The notes under the pieces: generated by a model | The model's database searches: none | The model's input: only the letters and a program-made list of their open reading frames with translations | Told to the model about the DNA's origin: nothing | Position numbers and translations under genes: made by a program | In this document: positions 6,972-51,540 of the stretch, in pieces | Numbering within the stretch: position 1 is the first letter of the stretch | Layout of the letters: every line of letters starts with the position of its first letter | DNA from: Acutalibacteraceae bacterium | GTDB lineage: Bacteria > Bacillota > Clostridia > Oscillospirales > Acutalibacteraceae | Direction: 5' to 3' | Length of the DNA stretch: 64,000 nucleotides | Assembly: GCA_045637705.1 (NCBI GenBank) | Contig: JAZTZY010000013.1 | Coordinates: 11,154 to 75,153, forward strand

Positions 6972-7110
6972 GGGGGAGTGGTGCAAGAGAGGGGGAGGCG
7001 GCTCCATCAAGTCGCTTTGCGATTTGCGGCTGCGGAGCAGCCGGCCCGAACGATAGTTCGGGCATGGAGCCGCCGCACTATCCGTCATAGCAAACTATAT
7101 GACGCGTGCC
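6972..7110. repeat. GC-rich structured element E1 (outer stem plus three hairpins)
   Basis: Outer stem ggcggctccat (6997-7007) pairs atggagccgcc (7064-7074). Inner hairpins: tcgc-tttg-cga, cggctgc-gga-gcagccg, gcccgaac-gata-gttcgggc. Shares the 5' flank GTGCAAGAG with E7. Confidence 0.6.
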
Positions 7111-7201
7111 ATAATAATTTTGATTTTTGCTATTGCTCAACTCTATCTTTTATGCTATAATATATTGATAAATTTTCACTCCGATTATATAGAGGTGAAC
7201 T

Positions 7202-9019
7202 ATGGCTGTTAAAAAAGAAAATATAAGAAACTTTTCTATCATCGCCCATATCGACCACGGCAAGTCAACTCTTGCAGACAGACTTCTCGAAATCACTGAC
7301 TCTGTGGCTAAACGTGATATGTCGGCTCAGATTCTCGACGATATGGACCTTGAAAAAGAAAGAGGAATCACTATAAAGGCTCACGCTGTAAAGCTTGACT
7401 ATAAGGCTAAAGACGGCGAAACTTATGAGCTCAACCTTATCGATACTCCGGGTCACGTTGACTTTAACTATGAGGTTTCACGTTCACTCGCGGCTTGTGA
7501 GGGTGCTATCCTTATTATCGACGCTTCTCAGGGCATCGAAGCTCAGACTCTTGCCAATACTTATCTTGCTCTCGACCACGACCTTGAGCTTGTTCCCGTT
7601 ATCAATAAAATCGACCTGCCTGCTGCAGAGCCTGACAGAGTTGCCGCTGAGGTTGAAGAAATCATCGGTCTTGACTGTATGAGCGCTCCCAGAGTGTCGG
7701 CTAAAACAGGCGAAAATGTGGCTGATGTGCTCGAAAAAATTGTTGCGGATATTCCCGCTCCCGCAGACGCTGTAGACGATGCACCTCTCAAGGCGTTGAT
7801 TTTCGACTCAGTTTATGACAACTATAAGGGTGTTATTGTTTATGTCCGCGTTATGCAGGGCACCCTTAAAGCAGGCGAAACAATGAAAATGATGGCTACG
7901 GGTGTCGAGTTCAATGTTGTTGAAGTAGGCTATATGCGAGCTACGGGTCTTGAACCCTGTAAGGAGCTTTCTGCAGGTGAGGTAGGCTACATTACTGCCT
8001 CAATCAAAACTGTCCGTGATGCTAAAGTGGGTGATACCGTCACAAAGCTTCAGAGACCTTCTGATAAACCTCTTCCCGGTTACAGAAAGGTTAATCCTAT
8101 GGTTTACTGCGGTGTGTATCCTGCCGACGGAGCAGACTATGAAGCTCTTCGCGATGCTCTTGAAAAATTGCAGCTTAACGATGCTTCTCTTTCATATGAG
8201 CCTGAAACATCAGGTGCTCTCGGTTTCGGTTTCCGTTGCGGTTTCCTCGGACTTCTGCATCTTGAAATTATTCAGGAAAGACTCGAGAGAGAATATAATC
8301 TCGACCTTGTTACAACAGTACCGTCGGTTGTGTATAAAGTCCATCTCGGTGACGGCAGTGTTGTCGATGTTGATAATCCCACTCACTATCCCGATCAGGC
8401 TAATATCGATTTCTGTGAGGAACCCATAACCAATGCTCATATCTATGCTCCGTCAGATTATGTGGGAGCCATTATGGACCTTTGTCAGGACAGACGAGGC
8501 GTTTTCAAAGATATGAAATATATCACCACAGACCGTGTTGATATTCACTATGAGCTTCCTCTTAACGAAATTATCTATGACTTCTTCGATGCCCTCAAGT
8601 CAAGAACGAGAGGCTATGCTTCATTTGACTATGAGATTTTCGAATACAGACGTTCTACTCTTCAGAAGGTAGACGTGCTTCTCAACGGTGATATCATCGA
8701 TGCGCTGAGCTTCATCATTCACTCTGAAAAAGCTCAGGCAAGAGCAAGAAAGATTGCTGAAAAGCTCAAGACTCATATACCCAGACAGATGTTCGAGATA
8801 CCCATTCAGGTTGCAATCGGCTCAAAGGTTATTGCCCGTGAGACTGTTAAGGCGATGAGAAAAGACGTTCTTGCCAAGTGTTACGGCGGTGACATCACCC
8901 GTAAGAAGAAGCTTCTTGAGAAACAGAAGGAAGGTAAAAAGCGTATGCGTCAGTTCGGCAGCGTTGAAGTGCCTCAGGAGGCATTTATGGCTGTGCTCAA
9001 GCTTGACGACGATAATTAA
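7202..9019 (+). CDS. lepA: Elongation factor 4
   Basis: 605 aa. [28 protein letters not shown], and the conserved LepA C-terminus. Confidence 0.95.
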
Positions 9020-9026
9020 AAAGCAT

Positions 9027-10124
9027 ATGACAGGAATATATATTCATATACCCTTTTGTCAGGGGAAATGTCCTTATTGTGATTTCTATTCCTTTAAAGC
9101 TAATGAAACCGAAAAGGACAGCTACTTAAAGGCTGTCCTTTTGTGTCTTAAAAAGTGGAAAGAAAAAATAAGTGACAGCATAGATACGGTTTATTTCGGC
9201 GGTGGTACCCCGAGTGTTTTCGGCAGTGAGAGAATATCTCAGGTTCTTGAGTTTATAAAAGCTAACTTCTGTCTCACCGACGATGCGGAAATAACAGTGG
9301 AATGCAATCCCTCAAGTGTCTCCCGGGAGTTTTTTAAGGGTATCAGTAAGGCGGGAGCAAACAGAATATCTATGGGTATGCAGTCGGCTGTTAAAAAAGA
9401 GCGACTGACTCTCGGCAGAGTTTCAGACTCTTCTCAGGTCAGAGATGCCGTTGATATGGCAAAAAAAGAGGGAATAGACAATATTTCTCTTGATATAATG
9501 CTTGGGGTGCCATATCAGACTATGGAAAGCTTAGATGAAAGCATAGATTTTCTGCTGAGTCTAGAGATTCCTCATATCAGCGCCTATATGCTGAAAGTTG
9601 AAGAGGGAACACCCTTTGATAAAATGGTTGACAGTCTTCTGCTGCCTGATGAGGACACTGTGGCAGAGATGTATCTTCATTGTTCGGAGCGCCTTGTTTC
9701 GGCAGGGTACGAGCACTATGAAATCTCGAATTTTGCTTTGAAAGGTAAGCAGAGCCGACATAACAACCGCTATTGGAAAGGACAGGACTATATAGGTATC
9801 GGCCCCTCAGCTCATTCCTGTTTCGGCGGCGAAAGATTTTATTATGACAGAGATTTTAATAGTTTTGTTTCGGGCGCTGAGCCGATAAACGACGGCTTCG
9901 GCGGTGATAAAGAGGAATATATTATGCTCAGACTCAGACTCTCTGAGGGTTTGAATTTCGAGGAATATGAGAAAAAATTCGGTGAAAAAATATCTGAAAA
10001 TATAATTGAAAAGATGAAAAAATATCACAAAGCAGGTCTTTTGCATATTGATGATAAGGGGATAAGACTGACCCCTGAGGGATTCTTGCTTTCAAATGTG
10101 ATAATAGGAGAAATGATTAGTTAG
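9027..10124 (+). CDS. hemW: Radical SAM heme chaperone HemW (coproporphyrinogen-III-oxidase-like)
   Basis: MTGIYIHIPFCQGKCPYCDF (CxxxCxxC) and a HemN-C-like tail. The start is placed after the lepA stop. Confidence 0.85.
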   Translation: MTGIYIHIPFCQGKCPYCDFYSFKANETEKDSYLKAVLLCLKKWKEKISDSIDTVYFGGGTPSVFGSERISQVLEFIKANFCLTDDAEITVECNPSSVSREFFKGISKAGANRISMGMQSAVKKERLTLGRVSDSSQVRDAVDMAKKEGIDNISLDIMLGVPYQTMESLDESIDFLLSLEIPHISAYMLKVEEGTPFDKMVDSLLLPDEDTVAEMYLHCSERLVSAGYEHYEISNFALKGKQSRHNNRYWKGQDYIGIGPSAHSCFGGERFYYDRDFNSFVSGAEPINDGFGGDKEEYIMLRLRLSEGLNFEEYEKKFGEKISENIIEKMKKYHKAGLLHIDDKGIRLTPEGFLLSNVIIGEMIS

Positions 10125-10230
10125 CAGGTGGCGGTAGGTTGCGGCGGCTCCATACCCGTCTGAAAGACGGGTCGGCAACGCAGTCGCCGTAAATCGCCGA
10201 GGCGATTTAATGGAGCCGCCTCCTGCCTAC
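10125..10230. repeat. GC-rich structured element E2
   Basis: The same outer stem as E1: ggcggctccat (10144-10154) pairs atggagccgcc (10210-10220). Inner hairpins: cccgtct-gaaa-agacggg, aatcgcc-gag-gcgatt. An additional flanking pair gcaggtggcgg/ccgcctcctgc. Confidence 0.6.
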
Positions 10231-10261
10231 AGATATTACTCTGATAAAAGGAGTTGAAATT

Positions 10262-11413
10262 ATGAATAAATACGGTCTTGTATTAGCCGGTGGTGGCGGT
10301 AAGGGTGCTTATCAGATAGGTGCCTGGCAGGCTATGAGAGAAATGGGAATAGAATTTGAGGCTATTGCAGGTGCCTCAATCGGTGGTATAAACGGTGCTT
10401 TTATTGCTGCAGGTGACTATGATAAAGCAGTAGAGTTCTGGCATAATATTTCAGTGGATAAGGGTGTCAGTTTTGCCAAAAATCTCCCCGACAGCGAAAA
10501 TCTCTTTTCAAGAAAAAACTGGGGAGTGCTCTTTAAGGAGTTTATAAAGACCGGCGGTATCGATGCTTCGCCTGCAGGACAGTTTGTCTCAGAGTTTATT
10601 GATGAAAAGAAGGTCCGTGACAGCGGTATCGACCTTGCAGTTATTGCCGTTCAGATGACTCAGGGTGTTGTGCCCAGAGAAATATTTATTCACGAGATGC
10701 CTGATGGTCAGCTTGTGGATTATCTGCTTGCGTCTGCCAACATACCTCTTGCTCAGAATATCGGCCCTGAGGGTGAAAAGTTCCTTGACGGGGGAGCATA
10801 TGACAATGCTCCTGCTATGACTCTTAAAAAGCGAGGATATAACCGCCTGATTATAGTGGATATTTCAAATATAAAGGGTGTGGCTCACAGTCTTAACTAT
10901 CTCAACAGCGAGATTGTGCATATCAGACCATATGATATTGATGATTTGGGAGCTACCTTTGACTTTGACGATGCGGTTATTGACCGCAGAATAAAGCTCG
11001 GTTATCTTGATACCAAAAAGTCATTTTCATATCTTCTTGGCAACATCTACTATTTCGAACCCGAAATTTTCAGAGCTATGGTCAAGAGGTACTCTGCCGA
11101 TACAGTATTGCAAATAGAACAGATGGCTCATCTGCTGAAAATTGAAAAGGCTGAGATTTATGATGAAAATGAGTTTATCTCGGCTGTAAAAGCTGAATAT
11201 GAAAAAGAGATAATTACTTATTATGAGAAACAACAGGCTCTTTTGCAGGAGGAAGACGGTATAATGCTTCACCTCAAGAGACGGTTTATGGATAAGAAAA
11301 GCTTTGACGATTATCCCTTGGCTGTGGAGCTTTTTGACAGTCTTAACCCAAATCTCAAAGCTCTTAAGGAGCCTGTAACCAAAGAATTAGCGGAGACAAC
11401 CGATGAAGTTTAA
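10262..11413 (+). CDS. Patatin-like phospholipase
   Basis: GGGGKGAYQIGAWQAM glycine-rich loop, nucleophile-elbow G-A-S-I-G and a DGG motif. Confidence 0.8.
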   Translation: MNKYGLVLAGGGGKGAYQIGAWQAMREMGIEFEAIAGASIGGINGAFIAAGDYDKAVEFWHNISVDKGVSFAKNLPDSENLFSRKNWGVLFKEFIKTGGIDASPAGQFVSEFIDEKKVRDSGIDLAVIAVQMTQGVVPREIFIHEMPDGQLVDYLLASANIPLAQNIGPEGEKFLDGGAYDNAPAMTLKKRGYNRLIIVDISNIKGVAHSLNYLNSEIVHIRPYDIDDLGATFDFDDAVIDRRIKLGYLDTKKSFSYLLGNIYYFEPEIFRAMVKRYSADTVLQIEQMAHLLKIEKAEIYDENEFISAVKAEYEKEIITYYEKQQALLQEEDGIMLHLKRRFMDKKSFDDYPLAVELFDSLNPNLKALKEPVTKELAETTDEV

Positions 11414-13058
11414 AACAGTTATATGTGTCCTCAACTCAAAATATATTCACTCTTCCCTGGCACCCTGGTGTCTTTATGCTGCCTGCAAAAAGGAACTGCC
11501 GAGTGAATGTGAAGTTAAAGTTGTCGAGGGTACAATAAACGAAAAGCAAGAAGATATATATAACAGAATAATTGCAGAAAAGCCTGATTTTGTTGGATTT
11601 TCCTGCTATATATGGAATATAACCAAGAGCCTTGAAATTGCCCGAAAGCTTAAAAATCTGGGAATTGCAATAGCTTTAGGCGGTCCTGAGGTGTCATACC
11701 GTCAAAGAGATATTTTAGAAAGATATGACTTTGCGGACTATGTTTTAAACGGCGAGGGTGAGGAAATTTTTCCTGAGCTTGTGAGAGCTTTGGCTAACGG
11801 TAAAGTGCCCGTGATCAAAGGTGTGTCCCTCAGAAAAGACGGAGAAGATATTATATCTGAGGGTGATACCGTAGATTTTGAAAACAGTGTTTCACCTTAT
11901 TGTGAAGAGTACTTCGAGGCATTGGGCAACAGAATTGCTTATATTGAAAGCAGCAGAGGCTGTCCCTTTTCCTGCGCTTTTTGTCTTTCAGGCAGATGCG
12001 GTAAAGTCAGATTTATTCCCCTGGAAAGAGTTAAAAGGGAAATGGTGCTTCTGAGTGATATGGGAGCCAAAACAATAAAATTTGTTGACCGTACCTTTAA
12101 CTGCAACCCCAAAAGAGCAGTTGAAATTCTGAGTTTTATCCGTGATGAATACGGCAAAAAAATAAAGAATGATGTTTGTTTTCACTTTGAGATTGCCGCA
12201 GATATCTTAACTCAGGAGCTCTTTGACGTAATAGCTTCTTTGCCCGTCGGTGCAGTTCAGTTTGAGGTTGGAATACAGTCTTTTAATGAAGAGACTCTGA
12301 AGAAAATCAATCGCAAAACCAATGTGGATCTGGTTGAAAGCAATGTAAAGAGACTTCTGTCTTACGGCAATTGCCATGTGCATATAGACCTGATTGCAGG
12401 ACTGCCCCTTGAAGATTATGACAGCTTTGTCAGAGGTTTTGACAGAGCTTATAATATCGGTGCTAATATGCTTCAGCTCGGCTTTTTAAAGGTGCTTCAC
12501 GGCTCACCAATGGCTGAGAATAAAGAAGAATATCCTTGCCTTTATTCAGGTGCAGCGCCTTATGAGGTTATAAAAACACCCTGGATAAACGAGGAAGAAC
12601 TTGAATTGTTGCATTTATGCGAAAACGAGCTTGAGAGACTTTATAATAGCGGAAGATTCCCACGTACTTTAGGGTATGTGACAAGATTTATGCCGCCATA
12701 TGATTTGTTTTTAGGATTTGCTGAATACTTGAACAGCATTGGCGAAAGCGGAAGTATACCTCTTGATAAATATGTGTGTCTTGTTTATGAGTATTTTTCT
12801 CTTATTCGCGGTGTGGATAAGATGAAGCTTCGTGATCTGATGATACTTGACAGGATTTCCACCAATAATTCAGATGTGATTCCCGCTTGCCTGAAGGTGA
12901 CGGATGAAAGACTGAAAAAGCTCAGAAGACAGGTCGGTAAGCATTGCAGTGTGGCTATACTTTACAGTGAAAATGTGGCGGTTTGCTGCGATTATGATGA
13001 AGATAAAAATCCTGTGACAGGTCAGTGGGAAATTAAAAGAATTGATGAAATTATATAA
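11403..13058 (+). CDS. B12-binding-domain radical SAM protein (DUF4080-type)
   Basis: N-terminal B12-binding-like region, CPFSCAFC radical-SAM cluster motif, 551 aa. Overlaps the patatin gene by 11 nt. Confidence 0.8.
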   Translation: MKFKTVICVLNSKYIHSSLAPWCLYAACKKELPSECEVKVVEGTINEKQEDIYNRIIAEKPDFVGFSCYIWNITKSLEIARKLKNLGIAIALGGPEVSYRQRDILERYDFADYVLNGEGEEIFPELVRALANGKVPVIKGVSLRKDGEDIISEGDTVDFENSVSPYCEEYFEALGNRIAYIESSRGCPFSCAFCLSGRCGKVRFIPLERVKREMVLLSDMGAKTIKFVDRTFNCNPKRAVEILSFIRDEYGKKIKNDVCFHFEIAADILTQELFDVIASLPVGAVQFEVGIQSFNEETLKKINRKTNVDLVESNVKRLLSYGNCHVHIDLIAGLPLEDYDSFVRGFDRAYNIGANMLQLGFLKVLHGSPMAENKEEYPCLYSGAAPYEVIKTPWINEEELELLHLCENELERLYNSGRFPRTLGYVTRFMPPYDLFLGFAEYLNSIGESGSIPLDKYVCLVYEYFSLIRGVDKMKLRDLMILDRISTNNSDVIPACLKVTDERLKKLRRQVGKHCSVAILYSENVAVCCDYDEDKNPVTGQWEIKRIDEII

Positions 13059-13063
13059 CTTAG

Positions 13064-13098
13064 TGCAAAAACGCACCCCATCGAGGGGTGCGTTTTTG
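13064..13098 (+). terminator. Rho-independent terminator
   Basis: aaaacgcacccc-atcg-aggggtgcgtttt plus TTTTT. Confidence 0.7.
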
Positions 13099-13101
13099 CT
13101 T

Positions 13102-13190
13102 GGCGGGGGCGGGGCCAAAGCGCCTGAAAGGCGCTTTGATGCGGGCGTTGCCCGCAGTTGCAGCCGAAGGCTGCAACGCCCCGCCCTAAA
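13102..13190. repeat. GC-rich structured element E3
   Basis: Outer gggcggggc/gccccgccc. Inner aaagcgcc-tgaa-aggcgcttt, gcgggc-gtt-gcccgc, gttgcagcc-gaa-ggctgcaac. Confidence 0.6.
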
Positions 13191-13240
13191 TCCGGTAATT
13201 ATCTGCCGGCTTTCATCATATAATTACTCAGGTGATTTAT

Positions 13241-13837
13241 ATGATGAATTACATTTTCCCGATTTTACTGATTTTTTCATTCGTTTCAGCCATAGTTACA
13301 GGCAGAATGAATGAGCTTTCCGCGGCTGTCATAGATGGCGCTGAAGCGGCTGTGCAATTGCTGATGAGACTTATATCAATGCTGTGTCTCTGGGGCGGTA
13401 TAATGGAAATCGGCGACAGGGCAGGCCTTACAGCTATGTTTTCAAAGATAATGTATCCGGTTGTGTCGCTTATATTTCCTCGCCTGAGAAAAGAAAAATA
13501 TGTTCTTGAAGCCATATCAATGAATATAACAGCCAATGTCCTTGGTCTTGGCAACGCCGCTACGCCCTTGGGTCTTGAAGCAATGAGAAGACTTCAGAGC
13601 ATAAACGGTGACACCTCTGTGGCAAGTGATGAGATGGTGGTCTTTGTTGTTATGAATACGGCGGCTATGCATATAATCCCCACCACTGTTGCAACTATGA
13701 GAGGTCAGTATGGCAGTGCAGATCCGATGGAAATTATGCCTGCGGCTTTTCTGACATCCTTTTGCGCCCTGATGTCAGCTATAAGTGTTGCTAAAATAGG
13801 CAACCGAATTTACAGAAAAAGGCAGGGGAAGATATGA
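13241..13837 (+). CDS. spmA: Spore maturation protein A (nucleoside-recognition membrane protein)
   Basis: Gate/nucleoside-transporter-like TM protein, paired with spmB. ATG at 13241 follows the RBS AGGTGA. Confidence 0.8.
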   Translation: MMNYIFPILLIFSFVSAIVTGRMNELSAAVIDGAEAAVQLLMRLISMLCLWGGIMEIGDRAGLTAMFSKIMYPVVSLIFPRLRKEKYVLEAISMNITANVLGLGNAATPLGLEAMRRLQSINGDTSVASDEMVVFVVMNTAAMHIIPTTVATMRGQYGSADPMEIMPAAFLTSFCALMSAISVAKIGNRIYRKRQGKI

Positions 13838-14358
13838 CGGATAATTGGGGAAGCTATATTTTGCCTGTGATGGTTGTCGGAATTGTAGCATTCGGACTTT
13901 TTAAAAAGGTCAAGGTTTTCGATTGCTTTATGTCAGGAGCCAAGAAAGGTTTACATACTGTTTATGAGCTTATGCCGAGTATTACGGGACTTGTTGTGGC
14001 GGTAACAATGCTCAAAGAAAGCGGAGCTATGGACATTCTCTCAGACGTGCTTTCTCCCGTGACGAGCTTTTTCGGCGTACCAAAAGAGATAACGCCTATG
14101 GCTCTGCTGAGTCCTGTGTCGGGCGGGGGATCGCTGTCGCTTTTTGAAAGTGTGCTGAAAACCTACGGGCCTGATTCTTTTGTGGGTCAGGTGGCAAGTG
14201 TTGTTATGGGTTCGACGGATACGACTCTGTATGCTGTTGCGGTTTATTATGCGGCGGTTAGTATTAAAAACACAAGGCATACTCTTATTTCGGGTTTGAC
14301 GGCAGATTTTTTGAGTCTTGTTCTTTCAGCTTTTTTTATCAGACTTACGGTGGGATGA
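13834..14358 (+). CDS. spmB: Spore maturation protein B
   Basis: 174-aa membrane protein, overlaps the spmA stop (ATGA). Confidence 0.8.
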   Translation: MTDNWGSYILPVMVVGIVAFGLFKKVKVFDCFMSGAKKGLHTVYELMPSITGLVVAVTMLKESGAMDILSDVLSPVTSFFGVPKEITPMALLSPVSGGGSLSLFESVLKTYGPDSFVGQVASVVMGSTDTTLYAVAVYYAAVSIKNTRHTLISGLTADFLSLVLSAFFIRLTVG

Positions 14359-14440
14359 GGGGGGCTCAGGTCTGCGACGAAGTCGCAGAGAAGCGACATC
14401 GTCGCTTAAAAATCCCGCAGGGATTTTCCTGAGCCCCCCT
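14358..14440. repeat. GC-rich structured element E4
   Basis: Outer aggggggctcagg/cctgagcccccct. Inner tctgcgac-gaa-gtcgcaga, agcgac-atc-gtcgct, aaaatccc-gca-gggatttt. Begins at the spmB stop codon. Confidence 0.65.
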
Positions 14441-14533
14441 AGACTTGCAAAATTTCAGAAAATATGTTATTATATAAAAAGATGACAAAATTGTAATAAT
14501 TAAGAAGGAACTCAAAAACTAAGGAGCGACATA

Positions 14534-16441
14534 ATGATTAAAAGACTGTTAAGTTTGACTTTGGCGGTGTTGTTGATTTTTCCTTTTATACCTGATATAA
14601 ATACTGAAGCTGCAAGTGACACTATGACTAACCTTGCGTCCCTTGTCAATCAGTTCCCTCACGGAAAATATTGGAACCATGTGGGTAAAAGCAATGACCC
14701 CGATGGAGTTACATCAACGCCTTGCATAAGCCATAGCAACTGTCACTGGTCAGCCAACAGCTGTAACTGCAATAGCTTCGACAACGCCATTCAGTGTATG
14801 GGATATGCTCATAAGATTTCATATGAGATAACAGGCGTACTGCCAAGAAATAACTATGTAAAACATACTACACTTAAAGCTTCAGACCTCAGAGTCGGTG
14901 ATATTATCCGTTACCGCTGGAACGGTCATTCAATTTGCGTGACGGGTGTAAAGGGCAATCAGATATCTTTTACTGACTGCAACTATATAGGCAGATGTCA
15001 GATAAGATGGGGCGTTATGAATCTCTCGGACATTGTGGGATTTTCATATGTACTCAGACTCAGCGGTAATCAGAGAAAAAACAGTGACCTTTATTTCTAT
15101 AAAAATCTTGACGGATATGAGACAGAAATTGACCTTGAGGCAAATCACGAAACCTGGCAGATGACAGACAATATCCTGAATCTCAGATCTGATTATAATA
15201 CATCAGCCAATATTGTCGGCAAGATTCCTGCAGGGGCACTGTTTAACATTTACGATAAATACTACGACGGTACCTATATATGGGGCAAGGTAGTATATGG
15301 TGATATAATGGGTTGGTGTGCTCTGAATTACTCGGAATATATTGAGGGCATAATTGAAAGACCTAACCTTAAAAACATTAATGAAGCCTATAAAACAGGC
15401 GAAAAAATCCTTTTACAGTGGGATGAAGTCAGCGGAGCGACGAAATATATCATTGCCGTTTATAACAGTGACGGAAAAAGAGTGAAGCGCTATGTTGTGA
15501 ACAGAAAGACCACAGAAAAAGCCCTTAAGATTTCCACTGCTGATGAATATACAGCTAAGGTTGTGGCAACGAGTTCCATAACTCCGTCATGGAAAATCGA
15601 GAGCAAACCTTATGTTTTCAATGTGGTTAAAAAGGCTGATATTGTCAAGGTAGAGAATTTGACTTTTACTGCGCCTAAAAAGATTGCCAAAGGCAGCAGC
15701 ATCACTCTTGAAGCTATTGTTGAGCCTGCCTGGGCAACGGACACTGCCGTTATATGGAATAGCAGTGATACATCAATTCTCTCAATCAGTTCAAAAGGTA
15801 AGGTTTCGGCCAAGAAGATAGGTGCTGTTACTGTAAGATGCACATCTGCTGAAAACAGCGAGATTTCTTTCAGTCGCAAAATTACAGTGGTACCCGACAA
15901 AGTAAAAAATATTTCTCAGACTTCGTCATCGTCATCATCAGTCGAACTTGGTTGGTCAAAGGTTGGCGGTGCAAGCGGTTTTGCAATATATAAATATAAC
16001 AGCAAGACAAAAAAATATGAGGAATTTGATAAGGCGGACAGCAATTCTTACACGATGAAAGTTTCGCCGGGGAAGACCTATAAAATCAAGGTCTGTGCTA
16101 TAGGAACCGTTTCGAACAAGGTATATAACGGTGAAATGTCTGATGAATTTTTGGTTGTTGCAGGCCCGAAAGCACCTGAGCTTGAGGCTGTTGTATCAAA
16201 GAAAAAAGCAGTTCTCAGCTGGAGTATGATTCCTGAAGCAACTCATTATCAGATCTATAGGATAAAAGACGGAAAAACGGTGAAATTAGCCACGGAGGAT
16301 GCTGACAGCACTGATTACTCCTTTGCTGATAAAAACCTCAAAACGGGCTCATACAGCTATAAAATCAGAGCTGTCAGAAAACTTGACGGTGTGACCGGTT
16401 ACGGCAGCTATTCCGATGTTGTGACTGTGAAAGTTAAATAA
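14534..16441 (+). CDS. Secreted multidomain protein: Cys/His-rich N-terminal domain, SH3b, Big_2 and fibronectin-III repeats
   Basis: Signal peptide, N-terminal CxxC/H-rich module (possible peptidase/amidase), SH3_3-like segment (IPAGALFNIYDKYYDGTYIWGKV), Ig-like Big_2 (ITLEAIVEPAWATDTAVIWNSSD) and Fn3-like repeats. Confidence 0.7.
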   Translation: MIKRLLSLTLAVLLIFPFIPDINTEAASDTMTNLASLVNQFPHGKYWNHVGKSNDPDGVTSTPCISHSNCHWSANSCNCNSFDNAIQCMGYAHKISYEITGVLPRNNYVKHTTLKASDLRVGDIIRYRWNGHSICVTGVKGNQISFTDCNYIGRCQIRWGVMNLSDIVGFSYVLRLSGNQRKNSDLYFYKNLDGYETEIDLEANHETWQMTDNILNLRSDYNTSANIVGKIPAGALFNIYDKYYDGTYIWGKVVYGDIMGWCALNYSEYIEGIIERPNLKNINEAYKTGEKILLQWDEVSGATKYIIAVYNSDGKRVKRYVVNRKTTEKALKISTADEYTAKVVATSSITPSWKIESKPYVFNVVKKADIVKVENLTFTAPKKIAKGSSITLEAIVEPAWATDTAVIWNSSDTSILSISSKGKVSAKKIGAVTVRCTSAENSEISFSRKITVVPDKVKNISQTSSSSSSVELGWSKVGGASGFAIYKYNSKTKKYEEFDKADSNSYTMKVSPGKTYKIKVCAIGTVSNKVYNGEMSDEFLVVAGPKAPELEAVVSKKKAVLSWSMIPEATHYQIYRIKDGKTVKLATEDADSTDYSFADKNLKTGSYSYKIRAVRKLDGVTGYGSYSDVVTVKVK

Positions 16442-16449
16442 AAGTTATT

Positions 16450-16483
16450 AAGGCGATGCTTATGCATCGCCTTAAGTTTTTAG
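16450..16483 (+). terminator. Rho-independent terminator
   Basis: aaggcgatgc-ttat-gcatcgcctt plus TTTTT. Confidence 0.65.
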
Positions 16484-16485
16484 TC

Positions 16486-16592
16486 TGAGGCGAAAGTGAG
16501 ACGGTGGCTCCGCCGCCGAAGGAACTTCGGCGAAGAGGGCGCGAAGCGCCCTCTTAAAATCGCTTTGCGATTTTGCGGAGCCACCGGTCCTG
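16486..16592. repeat. GC-rich structured element E5
   Basis: Outer ggtggctccgc/gcggagccacc. Inner cgccgaag-gaa-cttcggcg, agagggcgc-gaa-gcgccctct, aaatcgc-ttt-gcgattt. Confidence 0.65.
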
Positions 16593-16609
16593 ATTTTCAG
16601 ATACACATA

Positions 16610-16651
16610 TAAAAAAAGAACGCAGACTCTGAATCTGCGTTCTCGATTTTT
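16610..16651. terminator. Bidirectional terminator hairpin
   Basis: agaacgcag...ctgcgttct, flanked by an A-run on one side and a T-run on the other. Confidence 0.5.
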
Positions 16652-17150
16652 AGTTTCTGTTTTCAGTCTGCTGAAGACCGCTGAACTTCTGACCCCAGGC
16701 ATTTGCCCAAGCTTCACAATAAAGCTTTGAGTAGGGAACGTTGTTTTTCTTTCTGTAACCTGCAAAGCAGTTGCACCAGATAACTGAGGGAAGTGCAACA
16801 ATAATGTAGTAAAGAGGTCCGAGAAGAAGAGCCTGCCATGTGTGACCGTATTCGTGAATACGGCAGTTGTAAGTCCATTCTTTGCTCTTTGCATTATCTT
16901 TGATGAAGATAAACAGACCCATTGAAAGTCCGCCGCCTTTCCAGGGTACATAGACAATCTTAGCATAACCGAAGTGCTGCCAACGATAGCCTAAAATCTT
17001 TGTGCAGATGATATATGCAATCCAACCTACAAGGTTAACAGGCAGCGCCCATGTCCACTGAACAAGCATAAAGAGGAAATCTTTAAGGCTCTGCTGCCAG
17101 CATTTTTCTTTCTTAGGGGGTTCTTTTACTGAAATATCAATCTTTGTCAT
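16650..17150 (-). CDS. Polytopic membrane protein with an HExxH (HEYGH) motif, function unknown
   Basis: 166 aa, several TM helices, HEYGHTWQ. Overlaps the upstream transporter gene by ATGA. Confidence 0.5.
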   Translation of the reverse strand: MTKIDISVKEPPKKEKCWQQSLKDFLFMLVQWTWALPVNLVGWIAYIICTKILGYRWQHFGYAKIVYVPWKGGGLSMGLFIFIKDNAKSKEWTYNCRIHEYGHTWQALLLGPLYYIIVALPSVIWCNCFAGYRKKNNVPYSKLYCEAWANAWGQKFSGLQQTENRN

Positions 17151-18841
17151 TATGCATTCTCCTTTTCTGCTTTTTTACCCTCTTTTGAGTTTCTGATAGC
17201 TTTCATTTCTTCTTCGATTTCAACAAGAATCTGATATTCACCGTTTTCATCAGGCTCAACGGTGTGTGCTTCGGCAAGGTTGTTATCTTTACCGAGCCAT
17301 GTGTTTTCGTACTTCTGGCCGGAAATCTTTTCCATAATTTCGACCTGTTCATCAGTGAGAGCTACTGAGCCGTACTTATGCTTTGTTGCAATAGCAGCAC
17401 GGATGATTGAGTGCTCCTTCTTTGTCATCTGGAACTTGTGAAGAAGGAAGAGAGAAATAAGGGTAAATACGATAGGTGCAAATGTGATACAGATTCTTAC
17501 ACCTAAAAGAGCGCTGTCAGACTGTTGGAAATTGGGATCAACAGCAAGCTTATCCTTAAGCTCGTCACCAACGATAAGACCGAAGCCGCCGAGGATAAAC
17601 ATAACAACTGAGCTCATAACACCTGAAACTGTCTTTTTGATGAAGGTGTTGAATGTACCGATAACGCCTTCGCGTCTGCGGCCTGTGATGAGTTCGTCAA
17701 CGTCTGAGATATCGGGAAGGATATTTGTTGCAACATAGCCAAGACCTGACTTACCGAAGGGATAAAGAACAGCTGTAGCCATGAGAATAACTTTCCAGAT
17801 AAGTGCACCCTCTGTTTCGGGTGTGGGATTCATAAGCAGACAAACTGCAAAACCTGCAAGCATAAGAGGTGTTACAATAGCACCGCACTTTTTCTTGCCG
17901 AATTTGATGGTGAGAGCATAGTTGAGGGGGAATGATGCTGCTTCAAAGGCACCTGCGATGGTTGTGAAAAGAGTATACATTGAAGGAAGCTTTGCAACAT
18001 ATTCAATGTAATAAATAAGGGTTGTTGTATAGAAGTAGGTTGCGATGTTGTAGCAAAGGCTCATAAAGAAATATTCTCTGAAAGCTCTGTTTTTTACAAC
18101 ATAGCGATATTCATTCATAAGGAATTTGAAATCAAACTTCTCTGTCTTAAGGTCAAGAGAGGGCTTTTCTCTTACGCTTTTGAATGTTGTGAAAAGACTC
18201 AAGCCGTAAACTACCGCGAGAATAATACCTGCTATAAGCATAGGTTTCTGTGCACCTGCCTGAGGTGTGCTGAAACCGAATGAACCAAGAATTGCTGATA
18301 CAAGGAAGAATGAGGGGAACATACCGAATGAGTTAAAAATATAACCTACTGAGTTGTACTGTATTCTCAGGTCATAGTCCGGTGCAAGCTCAGGAAGCAT
18401 TGCAACGTGAGGTATGTCGATAACTGTGTATGCTGTTTTATAAAGCATATAAGCGGCAGTAAAATAGAGGAAGGTCTTTAAGGGTTCTGTTCTGCCGTCA
18501 AAACCGTAACCGTTCCACATCATTACAAAAGAAAGGCATAACAGAGGCATACCCCAGAGTATGTAACGTCTGTGCTTGCCGTACTTTGAACGGGTTCTGT
18601 CGGTGATAACACCCATAATGGGGTCGGTGATTGCGTCCCATACAACTGCAACGGTTGTAACGAGACCTGCCCATGCGAGGGGGAGGTTGACAACGTCGGT
18701 GAGGAATTTCATGTAATAGAGGTTTACAACATATCCCGCACCGGAGGTGGTGATGTTTGCGCTGCTATATTTCATCATGGGCAAAACGTCGTTTTTAAAG
18801 GTGCCCTTGACGCCTATCAGCTTAAGGATTTTTTGTTCCAT
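17150..18841 (-). CDS. MFS transporter, glycoside-pentoside-hexuronide:cation symporter family, with a C-terminal cytoplasmic extension
   Basis: 12-TM GPH signature region (DAITDPIMGVITDRTRSKYGKHRRY) and an approximately 100-aa hydrophilic tail. Confidence 0.8.
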   Translation of the reverse strand: MEQKILKLIGVKGTFKNDVLPMMKYSSANITTSGAGYVVNLYYMKFLTDVVNLPLAWAGLVTTVAVVWDAITDPIMGVITDRTRSKYGKHRRYILWGMPLLCLSFVMMWNGYGFDGRTEPLKTFLYFTAAYMLYKTAYTVIDIPHVAMLPELAPDYDLRIQYNSVGYIFNSFGMFPSFFLVSAILGSFGFSTPQAGAQKPMLIAGIILAVVYGLSLFTTFKSVREKPSLDLKTEKFDFKFLMNEYRYVVKNRAFREYFFMSLCYNIATYFYTTTLIYYIEYVAKLPSMYTLFTTIAGAFEAASFPLNYALTIKFGKKKCGAIVTPLMLAGFAVCLLMNPTPETEGALIWKVILMATAVLYPFGKSGLGYVATNILPDISDVDELITGRRREGVIGTFNTFIKKTVSGVMSSVVMFILGGFGLIVGDELKDKLAVDPNFQQSDSALLGVRICITFAPIVFTLISLFLLHKFQMTKKEHSIIRAAIATKHKYGSVALTDEQVEIMEKISGQKYENTWLGKDNNLAEAHTVEPDENGEYQILVEIEEEMKAIRNSKEGKKAEKENA

Positions 18842-18962
18842 TTTAACTTTTACACTCCTTTTAAGATATATAGATATACTTTACCATTTTATCGCTGTAA
18901 AGTCAAGGTGAAGAGGCAAAAAACAGGCACTTTACATCACTGCAAAGTGCCGTTTTAATTAA

Positions 18963-20570
18963 TTATTTTTTATTTGCAACAAACTCTTCAACCTTGCGTC
19001 TGATAATCTTTTTTGTTGTTGTTCTGGGGAAGGGTTCTTCAGAGACATAGATGTTTGTAATCTGCTTATAAACGGGCATATCCTTGTTGAACTTAGCAAT
19101 ATCTTCGCGGAGTTGCTGCTGTGTTGCGCCGCTTTCTTCGTCCATATAAACAGCTGCACAGAGCTTGTCGTCAACGCCGAGAACAACCACTTCGCTGATA
19201 TAGGGGATTGCCTTGTGAATATCATCTTCAATGCCTTCGGGAGCAACATTTTTGCCGTTGCCGAGAATGATGAGGTTCTTCTTTCTGCCGGTGAGGAAAA
19301 CGAAATCGTCTTCGTCAATATAGCCCATATCACCTGTCTTGAACCAACCGTCTGCGAAGTTTTCTTTTGTGTTTTCAGGGTCGTTATAGTATCCTGTCGA
19401 AACAGATACGCCTTTTGCCCAGAGTTCGCCGTCTACTACTTTCATTTCACAGCCGGGTACAACTCTGCCCACTGAATCAGCTTTCTGCAGATAGTCGAAG
19501 TTGAAAGCGAGAAGAGGTGAACACTCTGAAAGACCGTAACCTGTGAGCACCATAATGCCTAAATCTTTGCAGGAATCAACAAGAGTCTGTGAAACGGGTG
19601 CACCGCCTGCAACAACAAGTCTGAGTCTGCCGCCGAAAGCTGCCTTAACTTCGCCGAGAAGCTTATCTGTAAGGTCGATGCCGAGCTTTTTGGCAATGTT
19701 ACAGATTTTGATGCCAAGCTTGAGTTTCTTATCTTTACCCTCTTTTCTTGCTGTTGACCACACTTTGTCAATAAGCATCTGAGGAAGAAGAGGTACAGCG
19801 AAAAGCATTGTGGGTCTGTATTCGATAAGCTCTTTTGCAATGTGTCTCAGACCGCTGCTGATACATACGGGAATGCCGAAATATACCATAAGGAAGAGGT
19901 TGCCGAGACATTCGTAAGCGTGGTTCATGGGGAGTACTGAAAGAGATACGTCACTTTCGTGATAAACCCTTGCATGAGCACCGCCTGCCATAACATTTCT
20001 TGCGATGTTTCTCTGAGTGAGCATTACGCCTTTGCCCTTGCCGGTTGTGCCTGAAGTGAAGATGATAGTTGAAAGTTTGTCAGGCTGAACTTCGGGGAAG
20101 GGAAGATCTTCGCCCTCGAGCTCTACGGGGTTGTTAATGCAGAACATACCCATAGTACCGTCAGTTTTTTCTTTTACAAGCTCAGCGTAATCCTTATATG
20201 TTTTATCATAAAGGAAGAAGTCAACATCTGCCTTTTCCATCTGCTCATAAACATCTTCAAAACCGAGTTCTTTGTCGAGGGGTACGATAACAAGACCTGC
20301 ATACATAGCAGCATAGTAGCTGACAATATACTGATAGCTTGAACCGCCGATAACTGCAACATGACCTTTTTTTAGGTTCTGTCTCATAAGAAACTGAGCG
20401 AACTTCTTGCTGTCTGCAACCAGGTCGTTGTAGGTCTTTTCTACCTTTTGTCTTTTTTCTTTATAGATATAAGCTACGGAGTCTCCGTAAAGTCTTTTTG
20501 AGCGCTCTGCGAGTTCAACGATGGAGTTGATTTCTTCGCAGGGATAAAGCTTGAATTCTTTCTTGGACAT
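18963..20570 (-). CDS. Long-chain-fatty-acid--CoA ligase (AMP-binding enzyme)
   Basis: IIFTSGTTGKGKGVMLT AMP-binding motif, 535 aa. Minus-strand terminator hairpin at 18912-18955. Confidence 0.85.
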   Translation of the reverse strand: MSKKEFKLYPCEEINSIVELAERSKRLYGDSVAYIYKEKRQKVEKTYNDLVADSKKFAQFLMRQNLKKGHVAVIGGSSYQYIVSYYAAMYAGLVIVPLDKELGFEDVYEQMEKADVDFFLYDKTYKDYAELVKEKTDGTMGMFCINNPVELEGEDLPFPEVQPDKLSTIIFTSGTTGKGKGVMLTQRNIARNVMAGGAHARVYHESDVSLSVLPMNHAYECLGNLFLMVYFGIPVCISSGLRHIAKELIEYRPTMLFAVPLLPQMLIDKVWSTARKEGKDKKLKLGIKICNIAKKLGIDLTDKLLGEVKAAFGGRLRLVVAGGAPVSQTLVDSCKDLGIMVLTGYGLSECSPLLAFNFDYLQKADSVGRVVPGCEMKVVDGELWAKGVSVSTGYYNDPENTKENFADGWFKTGDMGYIDEDDFVFLTGRKKNLIILGNGKNVAPEGIEDDIHKAIPYISEVVVLGVDDKLCAAVYMDEESGATQQQLREDIAKFNKDMPVYKQITNIYVSEEPFPRTTTKKIIRRKVEEFVANKK

Positions 20571-20820
20571 CTGTTTGCCTCCTTTTGATATTAACTGTTT
20601 ATTTGCGATATTAGAATTTCATAGTTGCACACATATACCCTTATATAATATCAAAAAAGCACATCGGCATATGTTAAAAAACTAATGACAAACAATTAAC
20701 AAATTGTGTATATACAACATTCAGAGCGCGATTTGTTGTGATATTTTGATATCGGGTTGGTACTTGTGAAAAAGAAAATGGTGTGTTATAATTAATCGAA
20801 AAAGATTTGGGGAGAGAGTT

Positions 20821-21414
20821 ATGAGTAAACATCAACTGACAAGAAAACAGCTTGAATATTTTTCGAAAATGGCGGCAGAGGCTTATGTCAACGACCCTGT
20901 GCATTCTTATGTAACAAAGAATGAGACTTTAAGAAAAAAGTTTGTCTATCACTTTATGATAGAGCGCCTTGCCACATCTTCAAGAGAAGACATAATTTAT
21001 ACCGACGAGGAGAACAGAGGCATCTGCATATGGAGAGAAGCTCACAATGAATACGGAGTGCTTGATTTCCTCAGATGTCCCAATTGGGTGTTTTTATATT
21101 TTTATTGGCCCAAGACCATCAAAACTCTTATGGCTTATTCTCATCTTGATGTGAAAGTCTTTCCTGAAAATACTCTGATTATATCGCCTGTGTTTGTTGA
21201 CCCTCAACATCAGGGCAAGGGTATTGCAACAAAACTCATAAAGCAGGGCATAGCTGATCTGACAGCCAAAGGTTATAAGTTAGGCCTTGAGGCTCAGAAC
21301 GGCGACAATGTGAAGTTTTATGAAAAGCTCGGCTTCAGGGTCATAAAACACGACTATTGGAAAAGAGAAAAAATAGATAACTACTATATGATGTATCAGG
21401 AGGATGAACAATGA
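20821..21414 (+). CDS. GNAT-family N-acetyltransferase
   Basis: VDPQHQGKGIATKLI...KLGFRV acetyl-CoA-binding motifs. Confidence 0.8.
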   Translation: MSKHQLTRKQLEYFSKMAAEAYVNDPVHSYVTKNETLRKKFVYHFMIERLATSSREDIIYTDEENRGICIWREAHNEYGVLDFLRCPNWVFLYFYWPKTIKTLMAYSHLDVKVFPENTLIISPVFVDPQHQGKGIATKLIKQGIADLTAKGYKLGLEAQNGDNVKFYEKLGFRVIKHDYWKREKIDNYYMMYQEDEQ

Positions 21415-22373
21415 AAAATCTGACATTTGCCGATATTAACGGCGCTGACTTCAGACTTTATAAAAATAACCCCGTTATTCACAATCCTATATTCAGCAAT
21501 GTTGCTGCTGACCCGAGTGTTATCACACCCGACTTTTCTCACGACGGCAAGTGGCATCTGTTTTGTCATACTATGTACGGTGTATACCGTTATGAGAGCG
21601 GTGACGGTATCAGCTTTAATAATACCGGCAGGATAGTAAACCGTGCTATGAGACCCGACATCAATATCATCGACGGCAGATATTATCTTTTTTATGAGAG
21701 AACAAAGCCTCTTATCGGCAATGCACTTGCTTTGGTCGGCGGCAAATGGAAAAGTGAAATCTACTGCACAGAGTCAACCGACTTGAAAACCTGGACAAAG
21801 CCTCACTGTGTCATTGCCCATACAAGAGATTTTGAGGTTGACGAAAAAGGTCAGGCAATTTCAAATCCTTTCCTTATTGAAAAAGACGGCGGGTACAGAC
21901 TCTATTATTCCTGTGGTCAGACTTTCATCAAAGATTGCGGCTTCTGTGAGCCGACACATATTTCATATGCCGAGAGCAAAGCTATTTCAAAGGGTTACAC
22001 TTCCCGTACCGAGCCTATTATCAGCCCTGATAAAAACAACAAATATCTCAATCTCTGCTCAGGCTGCATCAAGGTCTATAAGCTCAAAGACTGTTACATA
22101 GGTCTGCAAAACGGCATATATGAAGACGGCGGCAAGAGTCATTCTGCTATTATGCTTCTTAAATCAGACGACGGAGAAAACTTCGAGTTTGTTAAGCCTT
22201 TCCTTGTGCCTCAGATGTGCGGCGACAACAACTGGATGGCTCAGTTTGTCTATGCCTGCTGTCTGACATATTATGAGGGCAAACTCAGACTTTATTTCAA
22301 TGCCCGTAATGTTGCGAATCCTATTATGGGAAGAGAAAGCATCGGTATATACGAAGCCGATTTAATTAAATAA
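21411..22373 (+). CDS. Glycoside-hydrolase-like beta-propeller protein (GH43/GH130-like)
   Basis: AADPSVITPDFSHDGKWHLFCH and DGRYYLFYE motifs are typical of five-bladed propeller glycosidases. Overlaps the GNAT stop. Confidence 0.45.
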   Translation: MKNLTFADINGADFRLYKNNPVIHNPIFSNVAADPSVITPDFSHDGKWHLFCHTMYGVYRYESGDGISFNNTGRIVNRAMRPDINIIDGRYYLFYERTKPLIGNALALVGGKWKSEIYCTESTDLKTWTKPHCVIAHTRDFEVDEKGQAISNPFLIEKDGGYRLYYSCGQTFIKDCGFCEPTHISYAESKAISKGYTSRTEPIISPDKNNKYLNLCSGCIKVYKLKDCYIGLQNGIYEDGGKSHSAIMLLKSDDGENFEFVKPFLVPQMCGDNNWMAQFVYACCLTYYEGKLRLYFNARNVANPIMGRESIGIYEADLIK

Positions 22374-22495
22374 TTCACCGTTTCCGGCAATTTAGCAGTG
22401 TCTATTTTGCCGGATTTATCATTTATTTCCGCCTGTGAATAAGATAGAATATAGTCGTAACATCAGGTTACATATCATTTTCAAGGAGGAAAACA

Positions 22496-22720
22496 ATGTT
22501 TGAAATCTTAGTTACCCTTTTATCTTTGTGGCTGTTTTTCGGTGCCGTGAAGCTTGCGTTCAGGTTAACCTGGGGAGCCACTAAAATTGTAGCTTCGGTT
22601 TTATTGGGTATTGCAGTGCCGGTGATGATACTTTGCCTTGTTTTTGCAGGCGGTGCTGTGATACTCATTCCTGCACTGCTTATAGGCGGAGCCTTCGCAA
22701 TGCTGAAAAAATGTGCATAA
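22496..22720 (+). CDS. Small two-TM membrane protein
   Basis: AGGAGG RBS, 74 aa, two hydrophobic helices. Confidence 0.5.
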   Translation: MFEILVTLLSLWLFFGAVKLAFRLTWGATKIVASVLLGIAVPVMILCLVFAGGAVILIPALLIGGAFAMLKKCA

Positions 22721-22721
22721 C

Positions 22722-22812: not shown

Positions 22813-22899
22813 TCACTTTTTGCAGGAACTAAAAAAGATAAACATAAATACCGCTGCACAGCTCGATGCTGTGCAGCGGTATCTTTCAGTTGAGATGTT

Positions 22900-49741: not shown

Positions 49742-49760
49742 TTTAAAGAGGTAATTATAT

Positions 49761-51056: not shown

Positions 51057-51123
51057 GCTATTGACTTTTTGTGTCGGCTTGTGTTAAAATACCATAGTAT
51101 AAAAATTTCGGAGGTTTAATCTC

Positions 51124-51372
51124 ATGACAGCTCTTCAGTATGTATTAGCGATTGTTATTATACTTGTTTCTATTGCAATCATTGCTTTAGTTATGCTTCA
51201 GGAAGGCAAACAGCAGGGTCTCGGTGCTATCGCAGGTGCCGCTGATAACTTCTTCGGTAAGAATAAGGGTAAGACTATGGATGCTCAGCTTGCAAAGTTT
51301 ACAAAGATTTGCGGTGTTGTATTCTTCATTCTTGCACTTGTAGCTTCACTTCTCGTTCTTTTCGGTGCATAA
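51124..51372 (+). CDS. secG: Preprotein translocase subunit SecG
   Basis: 82 aa, two TM helices, LQEGKQQGLGAIAGAAD signature. Confidence 0.85.
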   Translation: MTALQYVLAIVIILVSIAIIALVMLQEGKQQGLGAIAGAADNFFGKNKGKTMDAQLAKFTKICGVVFFILALVASLLVLFGA

Positions 51373-51392
51373 GAAATATTAAACAATCAACA

Positions 51393-51428
51393 AAAGGCGA
51401 ACCAATCGGTTCGCCTTAATTTTTTTAT
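51393..51428 (+). terminator. Rho-independent terminator
   Basis: aaggcgaacc-aatc-ggttcgcctt plus TTTTTTT. Confidence 0.7.
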
Positions 51429-51439
51429 AGTGAGTGCAA

Positions 51440-51540
51440 GAGGTGGGACGGGGGCTCAGGACTGCGGCGAAGCCGCAGTGAAGCGACTATGTCGCTTCGG
51501 TAATCCGCAAAGCGGATTACCCCTGAGCCCCCGGCTCTCC
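51440..51540. repeat. GC-rich structured element E7
   Basis: Outer gggggctcagg/cctgagccccc, identical to the E4 stem. Inner actgcggc-gaa-gccgcagt, gaagcgac-tat-gtcgcttc, ggtaatccgc-aaa-gcggattacc. 5' flank GTGCAAGAG as in E1. Confidence 0.65.

Follow-up and report, generated by a model that had tools for sequence, protein, structure and literature searches.

A 64-kb stretch of DNA from an Acutalibacteraceae bacterium (contig JAZTZY010000013.1, positions 11,154 to 75,153 of the forward strand; hereafter the window, whose own coordinates are used below) raises the question of why one and the same unusual fold, in which an outer stem encloses three hairpins and almost no bases of the junction are left unpaired, recurs at seven sites (E1-E7) beside the ends of genes, and whether the unit that matters is an RNA, a dispersed DNA repeat or a structural site used by the host. 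Our analysis confirms that E1-E7 constitute a real and well-defined family, which apparently has not been described before. On balance, we lean toward its interpretation as a lineage-specific, non-coding, interspersed DNA repeat composed of nested palindromes, akin to the REP, REPIN and BOX elements, which is maintained in its folded DNA form.

All seven sites pointed out in the preliminary description of the window exist where it had placed them, with cores that we have refined to 75-85 bases (75-100 nt across the family), and the architecture it ascribed to them, like the outer-stem sequences it listed, is borne out by the folds. With RNA parameters, six of the seven copies form an outer stem of 9-12 bp and hairpins of 5-11 bp with loops of 3-5 nt, leaving 0-2 unpaired bases at the junction; the energies range from -51 to -73 kcal/mol, with z-scores of -4.8 to -10 relative to dinucleotide shuffles, none of 200 shuffles folding as well as the native copies. 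In the RNA minimum-energy fold of E4 two hairpins are merged, the folded segment being shorter than the true span (14359-14439). With DNA parameters, the three-hairpin fold is obtained for all seven copies (z-scores of -6.2 to -12.9), E4 having been folded on the segment 14358-14432, which lacks part of the 3' arm and shows the outer stem only partly. A 110-nt fold slid along both strands of the whole window gave a mean of -21.7 kcal/mol (standard deviation 6.9), compared to -58 to -76 kcal/mol at E1-E7 and -43.7 kcal/mol at the runner-up, a cluster of tRNA genes. A search with a covariance model (R1, built from 16 copies), of the kind that the preliminary description had called for, was run on the window and its relatives, and in the window it finds exactly E1-E7 and nothing more. 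All seven copies in the 64 kb lie in spacers and overlap at most a stop codon, and their density is uneven, with six within 6997-22809 (16 kb, from tuf/lepA to the arabinofuranosidase gene) and one in the remaining 41 kb. The genome, introduced as AT-rich, is only moderately so (41.9% G+C in the window).

The preliminary description recognized no named family in these elements, and neither do we. At gathering thresholds, Rfam 15 detects in the window no family besides four tRNAs (genes clustered at 56037-56363, + strand), which are its sole matches there, and a permissive Rfam scan of 6900-22900 remained at chance level, with element-overlapping matches of 19.5-24.5 bits against gathering thresholds of 47-59. 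The consensus element has no BLAST match among plasmids and phages, and no published description of such a family was found in the literature. Among viral contigs the outer-stem pattern gave a single match, a chance one that has no hairpins.

For comparison, 42 loci (designated by L numbers) were gathered via relatives of the B12/radical-SAM protein encoded at 11403-13058 of the window. They come from metagenome-assembled genomes of uncultured Acutalibacteraceae or other Oscillospirales of ruminant guts. According to a fold scan and a junction parser, elements are present in the four closest loci only (L001, L002, L008 and L011; 74-77% protein identity), with 4-5 copies in each (4 per 9-22 kb), which likewise lie in spacers; their contigs are from the assemblies JAZQZO01, JAZSMR01, JAGBSR01 and JAZRDY01. 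The copies in the window and their surroundings are as follows.

E1 core, 6997-7074, + strand: between the tuf terminator and the lepA promoter; R1 score 92.9 bits on +; outer stem GGCGGCTCCAT/ATGGAGCCGCC; orthologous copies at L008 1100-1177 and L011 219-296.
E1 hairpins: A, CAAGTCGC-TTT-GCGATTTG; C, CGGCTGC-GGA-GCAGCCG; B, GCCCGAAC-GATA-GTTCGGGC.
E1 5' flank, 6967-6996, + strand, G-rich: TACGTGGGGGAGTGGTGCAAGAGAGGGGGA, which fits the family flank consensus GTAYRCGGGrAAGT..CTGCAAGAGGTGGGA; begins right after the T-run of the tuf terminator (6932-6959).
E1 3' flank, 7075-7110, + strand, C-rich: GCACTATCCGTCATAGCAAAC..., a degenerate inverted copy of the 5' flank.
E2 core, 10143-10220, - strand: spacer between hemW and a patatin-like gene, no terminator in between; R1 score 90.6 bits on -; on the + strand the A module comes last; the conserved TTAG of the flank (10121-10142) contains the hemW stop codon TAG (10122-10124).
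E3 core, 13106-13187, + strand: between the B12/radical-SAM gene and spmA, past the terminator of the former (13069-13098); R1 score 39.6 bits; seen in both DNA and RNA folds; outer stem GGGGCGGGGC, divergent and peculiar to this site.
E4 core, 14359-14439, - strand: begins 1 nt past the spmB stop codon TGA (14356-14358); outer stem GGGGGGCTCAGG/CCTGAGCCCCCC; R1 score 56.2 bits on - (14360-14438); orthologue at L001 5235-5313.
E5 core, 16502-16586, - strand: between the convergent intrinsic terminators 16448-16475 (+) and 16644-16616 (-), outside both transcription units; outer stem CGGTGGCTCCGC; R1 score 68.1 bits on -.
E6 core, 22729-22809, + strand: about 8 nt past a stop codon; followed by a bidirectional terminator (22846-22884), which also serves the convergent arabinofuranosidase gene; outer stem GGGGCTCCGT; R1 score 37.2 bits.
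E7 core, 51449-51533, - strand: past the terminator of secG (about 51392-51427); the stop of a convergent nitroreductase-like gene (51554-52330, -) is 21 nt away; outer stem CGGGGGCTCAGG; R1 score 45.3 bits on -.
E7 5' flank, 51428-51448: ATAGTGAGTGCAAGAGGTGGGA, which fits the family consensus.

The position of the elements relative to genes agrees with what was first reported: E2, E4 and E6 directly follow stop codons, and E1, E3, E5 and E7 (four of the seven) lie beyond intrinsic terminators, E5 being placed between two convergent ones. E2 and E4 separate co-directional genes, with no terminator from the upstream stop codon to the element, and E6 is flanked by a stop codon and a bidirectional terminator. 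Since the spmB stop codon is only 1 nt away from the outer stem of E4, the last spmB codons are encoded by the flank of this element. The outer stems of E1-E7 are not followed by the T-run of an intrinsic terminator, and separate conventional terminators adjoin E1, E3, E5, E6 and E7. Judged by the strand of the best R1 match, E1, E3 and E6 are oriented as + and E2, E4, E5 and E7 as -, while all of them follow genes of the + strand.

The elements are modular. The short-form consensus reads GGCGGCTCCAT / TAAATCGC-nnn-GCGATTTA / CGGCTAC-nnn-GTAGCCG / ACCCGAAC-nnn-GTTCGGGT / ATGGAGCCGCC; among short-form copies from unrelated loci column identity averages 82%, and only the loops vary freely. The inner hairpins represent a small number of conserved modules (AAATCGC/GCGATTT, CCGAAC/GTTCGG and CGGCnnC/GnnGCCG), the middle hairpin being sometimes long (10-13 bp, with a conserved CAAGG/CGAGG base); E4 and E7 are paralogues. 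The differences between inner hairpins had been taken as a sign of selection on structure; however, the stems are conserved in sequence as well as in pairing, and the inner hairpins are not free-form. Beside many copies there is a conserved flank of about 20-30 nt, AGTnnCTGCAAGAGGTGGGA, and the GTGCAAGAG motif noticed earlier next to E1 and E7 is real and belongs to this longer flank. Read inwards, the flanks of both sides follow the pattern (T-run)..GTAYRCGGGrAAGT..AGTnnCTGCrrGAGGTGGGa, the + strand being G-rich on the left and C-rich on the right, and the words that recur among 76 flanks are TAGT (in 19 of them, at -30 to -21) and GTAC/GTAT. The flanks are part of the element. In 13 of 16 cases (manual count) the longer of the two flanks is the one on the AAATCGC side, which indicates that the element has polarity. 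The whole unit is a nested palindrome of about 130 nt, which consists of a degenerate G-rich/C-rich inverted flank, a perfect inverted repeat of 9-12 bp and three short palindromes.

Are these palindromes maintained as RNA or as DNA? In 49 catalogued copies we counted 1734 Watson-Crick pairs, 18 G·T and 7 A·C pairs, 13 other mismatches and 4 bulges, i.e. the stems are 97.9% Watson-Crick, with about 1% of G·U. The paired cells of the model-fitted alignment amount to 97.5%, compared to 66% after shuffling and 33-44% with the partners slid, and 890 cells are changed on both sides as opposed to about 20 changed on one side (about 0.7% of cells), the counts in this alignment being inflated because it includes both strands of most copies. 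Between orthologous copies of E1 and E2, 191 pairs are unchanged, 75 exhibit double changes that keep Watson-Crick pairing and 4 are changed on one side. The covariation is real, and the original observation that pairing is preserved through two-sided changes stands. However, the inference of selection on RNA that was drawn from it does not: the near absence of wobble pairs makes these stems unlike RNA helices, and among the roles first proposed it is the REP/BIME-like one that fits best. In terminator-like hairpins of the same DNA, assembled as a rough control, G·U pairs make up 11.8%; this control is noisy because many of its hairpins lie in coding sequence. The folding energy is equal on both strands, and the G·U pairs (11 on the gene-sense strand and 4 antisense) do not differ significantly and are too few to decide the strand.

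The loops and the order of the hairpins are informative as well. The commonest loops are triloops closed by C that form complementary pairs, namely AAA/TTT (22), GAA/TTC (22) and GCA/TGC (20); triloops of the C-GNA-G type form exceptionally stable DNA mini-hairpins. At the E3 site, the loop of one and the same hairpin is GAA in two loci (the window and L008) and TTC in two more (L001 and L011), and such a swap of three bases for their complement suggests an inversion between the arms rather than a set of point mutations. At this site, L008 and L011 have the hairpins in the opposite order to the window, L001 and L002, and a reversed order is likewise seen in the copies that precede lepA in L002 and L008.

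A cis-acting RNA at mRNA 3' ends or between cistrons, which could block 3'-to-5' exonucleases, serve as a processing or attenuation site or be the target of an RNA-binding protein, is an unlikely explanation in the light of these data. It would account for the location of nearly every copy just past a gene end, for the presence of E2, E4 and E6 within likely transcripts, for the extreme stability of the RNA folds and for the slightly (not significantly) higher number of G·U pairs on the gene-sense strand, and both REP and BOX have been reported or proposed to act in this way when co-transcribed (PMC3049150). On the other hand, it fits poorly with the window copies that lie downstream of intrinsic terminators (four of the seven, E5 between a convergent pair), with the mixed orientation relative to the upstream gene, with the scarcity of G·U compared to the terminator-like hairpins, with the conservation of stem sequence (needless for a generic exonuclease block), with the loops that swap to their complement, and with the lack of conserved unpaired positions and of any Rfam match. 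Thus, the pairing, the loops, the inversions, the mixed orientation and the terminator-distal placement speak for a palindrome at the level of DNA and not for a strand-specific RNA, and they illustrate that strong covariation in an intergenic motif is by itself no proof of RNA.

The age of the copies follows from orthologous sites. The spacer between the B12/radical-SAM gene and spmA (the E3 site) is occupied in the window, L001, L002, L008 and L011 and empty in L005-L007; the E1, E2, E4 and E5 sites are likewise shared with some of the related loci, and the E2 orthologues in L001, L008 and L011 are oriented as in the window. Among the five element-bearing genomes, the neighboring protein is 74-83% identical and the four-fold degenerate sites are 38-51% identical, i.e. 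near saturation, while orthologous cores are 69-92% identical compared to about 55% for shuffled ones. Moreover, site-specific traits have been inherited, E3 with its stem of the GGCGGGGC type and E2 with its ACCyGTC hairpin being examples. Such inherited traits at near-saturated divergence imply that the copies are old and constrained in sequence, and the earlier assertion that they do not result from recent copy-paste is upheld. Occupancy is nonetheless polymorphic: apart from the empty sites in L005-L007, a copy in L071 adjoins the orthologue of a window gene that has no element in the window, and a copy in L044 probably does likewise.

It follows that the perfect pairing can hardly reflect youth, as it would in ordinary recently amplified MITEs (miniature transposable elements with inverted repeats) or in assembly artefacts. 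We regard this explanation as very improbable, although the near-perfect pairing as such, the many copies with the identical outer stem GGCGGCTCCAT and an artefact-like palindromic partial copy at a contig end (L008 18656-18816) would agree with it. The occupation of the same sites in five genomes with saturated four-fold positions, the inherited features of the E3 and E2 sites, the many double changes between orthologues and the occurrence of the elements in independent assemblies from different hosts essentially exclude recent amplification or artefact.

The same persistence across synonymous-saturated genomes invites a different explanation, namely that the elements are structural DNA sites with a host function at the boundaries of transcription units, Holliday junction-like cruciforms or palindromic protein-binding sites under purifying selection, possibly docking sites for gyrase, HU or a junction-binding protein, or supercoil sinks between genes. 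The conserved stems and free loops, the equivalence of the two strands (such a function would be independent of orientation), the enrichment at convergent gene ends and beside terminators, and the absence of unpaired bases from the junction, as in a true four-way DNA junction, are all compatible with this scenario, and the BIMEs of E. coli bind gyrase and IHF. We consider it unlikely, though a live alternative in view of the long persistence: close relatives (70-71% protein identity) have no elements at these positions, related genomes are not occupied alike, and the window copies are crowded, six of the seven within 16 kb; besides, for the spontaneous extrusion of a cruciform, arms of 7-12 bp are on the short side, and no candidate binding protein was identified.

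The distribution of the family is narrow. Across 857 kb searched, R1 matches are confined to the window, L001, L002, L008, L011 and low-GC metagenome contigs, with none in the 37 other Oscillospirales loci. A scan of metagenomes with the commonest outer stem returned at least 80 loci, of which at least 28 contain true elements, all on low-GC contigs, the remaining ones being chance matches in high-GC DNA. We conclude that the family is found only in a narrow clade of uncultured ruminant-gut Acutalibacteraceae. The 28 metagenome copies occupy distinct gene contexts, beside housekeeping genes, and there is no transposase among the 58 open reading frames (ORFs) that adjoin them. The G+C-rich elements were masked before the ORF-based context calls because they create spurious ORFs. 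Where both neighbors could be called, 19 contexts are tandem, 8 convergent and 2 divergent (background: 54, 14 and 16, respectively), and at least one of the two divergent calls is spurious; in tandem contexts the copy is usually closer to the upstream stop than to the downstream start. The copies are thus almost confined to spacers in which one gene or more terminates, in many cases right behind the T-run of a terminator.

A dedicated mobilizing enzyme of the REP-associated tyrosine transposase (RAYT) type, which the preliminary description had suggested looking for, did not emerge from the window and the related loci, the only ones in which it was sought. The window contains no Y1 homologue. 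In L002, a gene of a Y1 transposase of the IS200/IS605 type (TnpA, 159 aa; 4679-5158, with flanks about 4590-5300) lies 162 nt upstream of the copy that precedes lepA. This protein scores 158.7 bits with the IS200 model (equivalog) and 34.5 bits with the REP-associated transposase model (cut-off 80), and its close homologues in public metagenomes number more than 8000, most of them located on very short contigs; such a pattern is typical of a multi-copy insertion sequence that spreads through gut bacteria. No element is present in 17 contexts of proteins 94-96% identical to it. On these grounds we reject it as a dedicated RAYT partner and regard it as an unrelated insertion sequence, one that inserted into a site of this type. 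A copy of the same IS200-type transposase in L139 (836-1797) lies directly after secG, the type of site occupied by E7 in the window; different elements seem to use post-terminator spacers as common landing sites.

Among the known systems, the REP/BIME/REPIN elements of Proteobacteria, associated with RAYT (TnpA-REP), resemble the window family in being short, G+C-rich extragenic palindromes that occur in many copies, mostly past gene ends and in either orientation, and the extragenic copy number is high in both. They, too, are thought to act as folded single-stranded DNA, with side effects on mRNA when co-transcribed, and REP/REPIN copies can persist very long in a lineage (bioRxiv 10.1101/2021.07.10.451892). 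However, a REP is a single imperfect palindrome of 20-40 nt and a REPIN an inverted doublet that folds into one long hairpin, whereas here four nested palindromes make up a four-way junction of 75-100 nt; the REP tag GTAG/CGTC has no fixed counterpart in the 76 flanks, no RAYT flanked by repeats was found beside the copies of the window and related loci, and the host, a member of Clostridia, falls outside the phyla listed for tagged REPs (PMC3733652). The BOX elements (boxA-boxB(n)-boxC) and RUP/SPRITE of Streptococcus pneumoniae share with our family a Firmicutes host, modularity, terminal inverted repeats that form an outer duplex and variable inner modules; BOX is tightly folded and enriched downstream of genes, and it proliferated long ago and is now slow-moving (PMC3049150). 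In contrast to the window family, which always has three hairpins and varies in length only in the middle one, BOX varies in the number of boxB modules, is AT-richer and does not form perfect junctions; the resemblance is architectural, and no sign of relatedness in sequence was noticed, the two having been compared by description only.

Classical MITEs (Correia/NEMIS, ERIC, Nezha) are likewise non-coding, dispersed and polymorphic in presence, as are the elements of our family, and they carry terminal inverted repeats, to which the perfect outer repeat of 9-12 bp and the degenerate inverted flank of about 20-30 nt correspond. Unlike them, the window family is G+C-rich instead of AT-rich, lacks a target-site duplication and has an unusual interior of three perfect hairpins, and no parent insertion sequence with matching ends is known from about 130 kb of element-bearing DNA. 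The inverted terminal repeat (ITR) of adeno-associated virus (AAV) consists of an outer stem around small GC-rich palindromes with 3-nt AAA/TTT loops, its interior exists in flip and flop forms that arise by unfolding and copying, and it is recognized by an HUH nuclease. We use this likeness only as a working analogy, with no homology implied: the ITR is a three-way (T-shaped) telomere of a linear viral genome, whereas the window elements are four-way, chromosomal and internal. Finally, the "mobile/repeat sequence candidates" that emerged from the surveys of GC-rich intergenic regions by the Breaker laboratory are, according to the parts of the source that we consulted (PMC11109978), structured, covarying and multi-copy, reside in AT-richer genomes and have inconsistent orientation. 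They constitute an operational category rather than a family; the example given in those parts is a single long stem, and no four-way junction is found among the candidates described there.

In the interpretation as a REP/REPIN/BOX-like repeat, toward which we lean, the unit that matters would be the folded DNA, either a single strand on the lagging-strand template or an extruded cruciform. Copying of one arm from the other, by hairpin-templated strand switching or by arm-to-arm recombination, would remove mismatches and flip loops and interiors, and a putative structure- and sequence-specific protein would read the conserved stems and spread or maintain the copies. The element would be tolerated in terminator-proximal spacers, or targeted to them. 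In co-transcribed copies (E2, E4 and E6) the very stable RNA could slow 3' exonucleases or ribosome release, as a side effect and not as the reason for which the family exists. Should this interpretation hold, the REP/REPIN/BOX type of repeat would be extended to a clade of uncultured gut Clostridia, with a new geometry, the perfect four-way junction. The family also offers a clean natural data set on the evolution of nested palindromes, with double changes that bypass wobble intermediates, loop swaps, inversions and persistence across saturated divergence.

Several observations weigh against this interpretation. No mobilizing protein was found in the window and related loci, where the sole Y1 gene near a copy belongs to an ordinary IS200. 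A fixed GTAG/CGTC tag is not found: the 76 flanks contain 18 occurrences of GTAG, scattered in position, and two of CGTC. There is no target-site duplication, i.e. no direct repeat at a consistent offset, the best case being 3 of 38 copies for 4-mers. Long residence at fixed sites with conserved sequence is unusual for selfish DNA and could equally mean a host function. Lastly, the folded-DNA repeat model does not explain the polarity of the loops, which is specific to each genome.

Scored on the strand of the syntenic genes, where the GC skew is positive in all five loci, the triloops are of the purine type (GAA/GCA/AAA) and of the pyrimidine type (TTC/TGC/TTT), respectively, in 12 and 2 cases in the window, 1 and 6 in L001, 0 and 7 in L002, 3 and 4 in L008, and 3 and 5 in L011. 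The heterogeneity among the five loci is significant (chi-square p = 0.0012), as is the difference between the window and L001 plus L002 (12:2 vs 1:13 purine:pyrimidine; Fisher p = 7e-5). Within a genome the polarity is coordinated, and at the same syntenic sites it varies from one genome to another; in the window it tracks the genome strand and not the orientation of the element. The direction of replication or transcription is ruled out as its cause, because the five syntenic loci share gene orientation and positive GC skew yet have opposite polarity. The coordination hints at an active, strand-aware process. It is tempting to speculate that the elements are domesticated DNA four-way junctions, mimics of Holliday junctions retained by the host where transcription units end, and that a dedicated structure-specific enzyme unfolds and recopies their hairpins, which would yield both AAV-like flip/flop and strand-coordinated loop polarity. 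We consider this improbable; if true, it would define a new class of chromosomal structural DNA signal, beyond selfish repeats or RNA motifs.

Two further arrangements were noticed in L008, both of which involve copies of the element. Between tuf and lepA (1100-3210) there is a gene for a 569-aa protein (1350-3059; weak match to alpha/beta-hydrolases), bracketed by two complete elements that are inverted relative to each other, 1100-1177 and 3132-3210. The tuf-lepA spacer of the window and of L011 contains one element and no such gene, and the arrangement in L008 looks like the insertion or capture of a gene at an element. At the contig end of L008, the segment 18656-18816 is a long perfect palindrome in which a GGGGGCTCAGG outer stem surrounds a single AAAATCC hairpin; it may be a one-hairpin variant or, more likely, a fold-back artefact of assembly. 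In the window, another stable fold, at 34441-34550, has the appearance of ordinary sequence and is probably coding.

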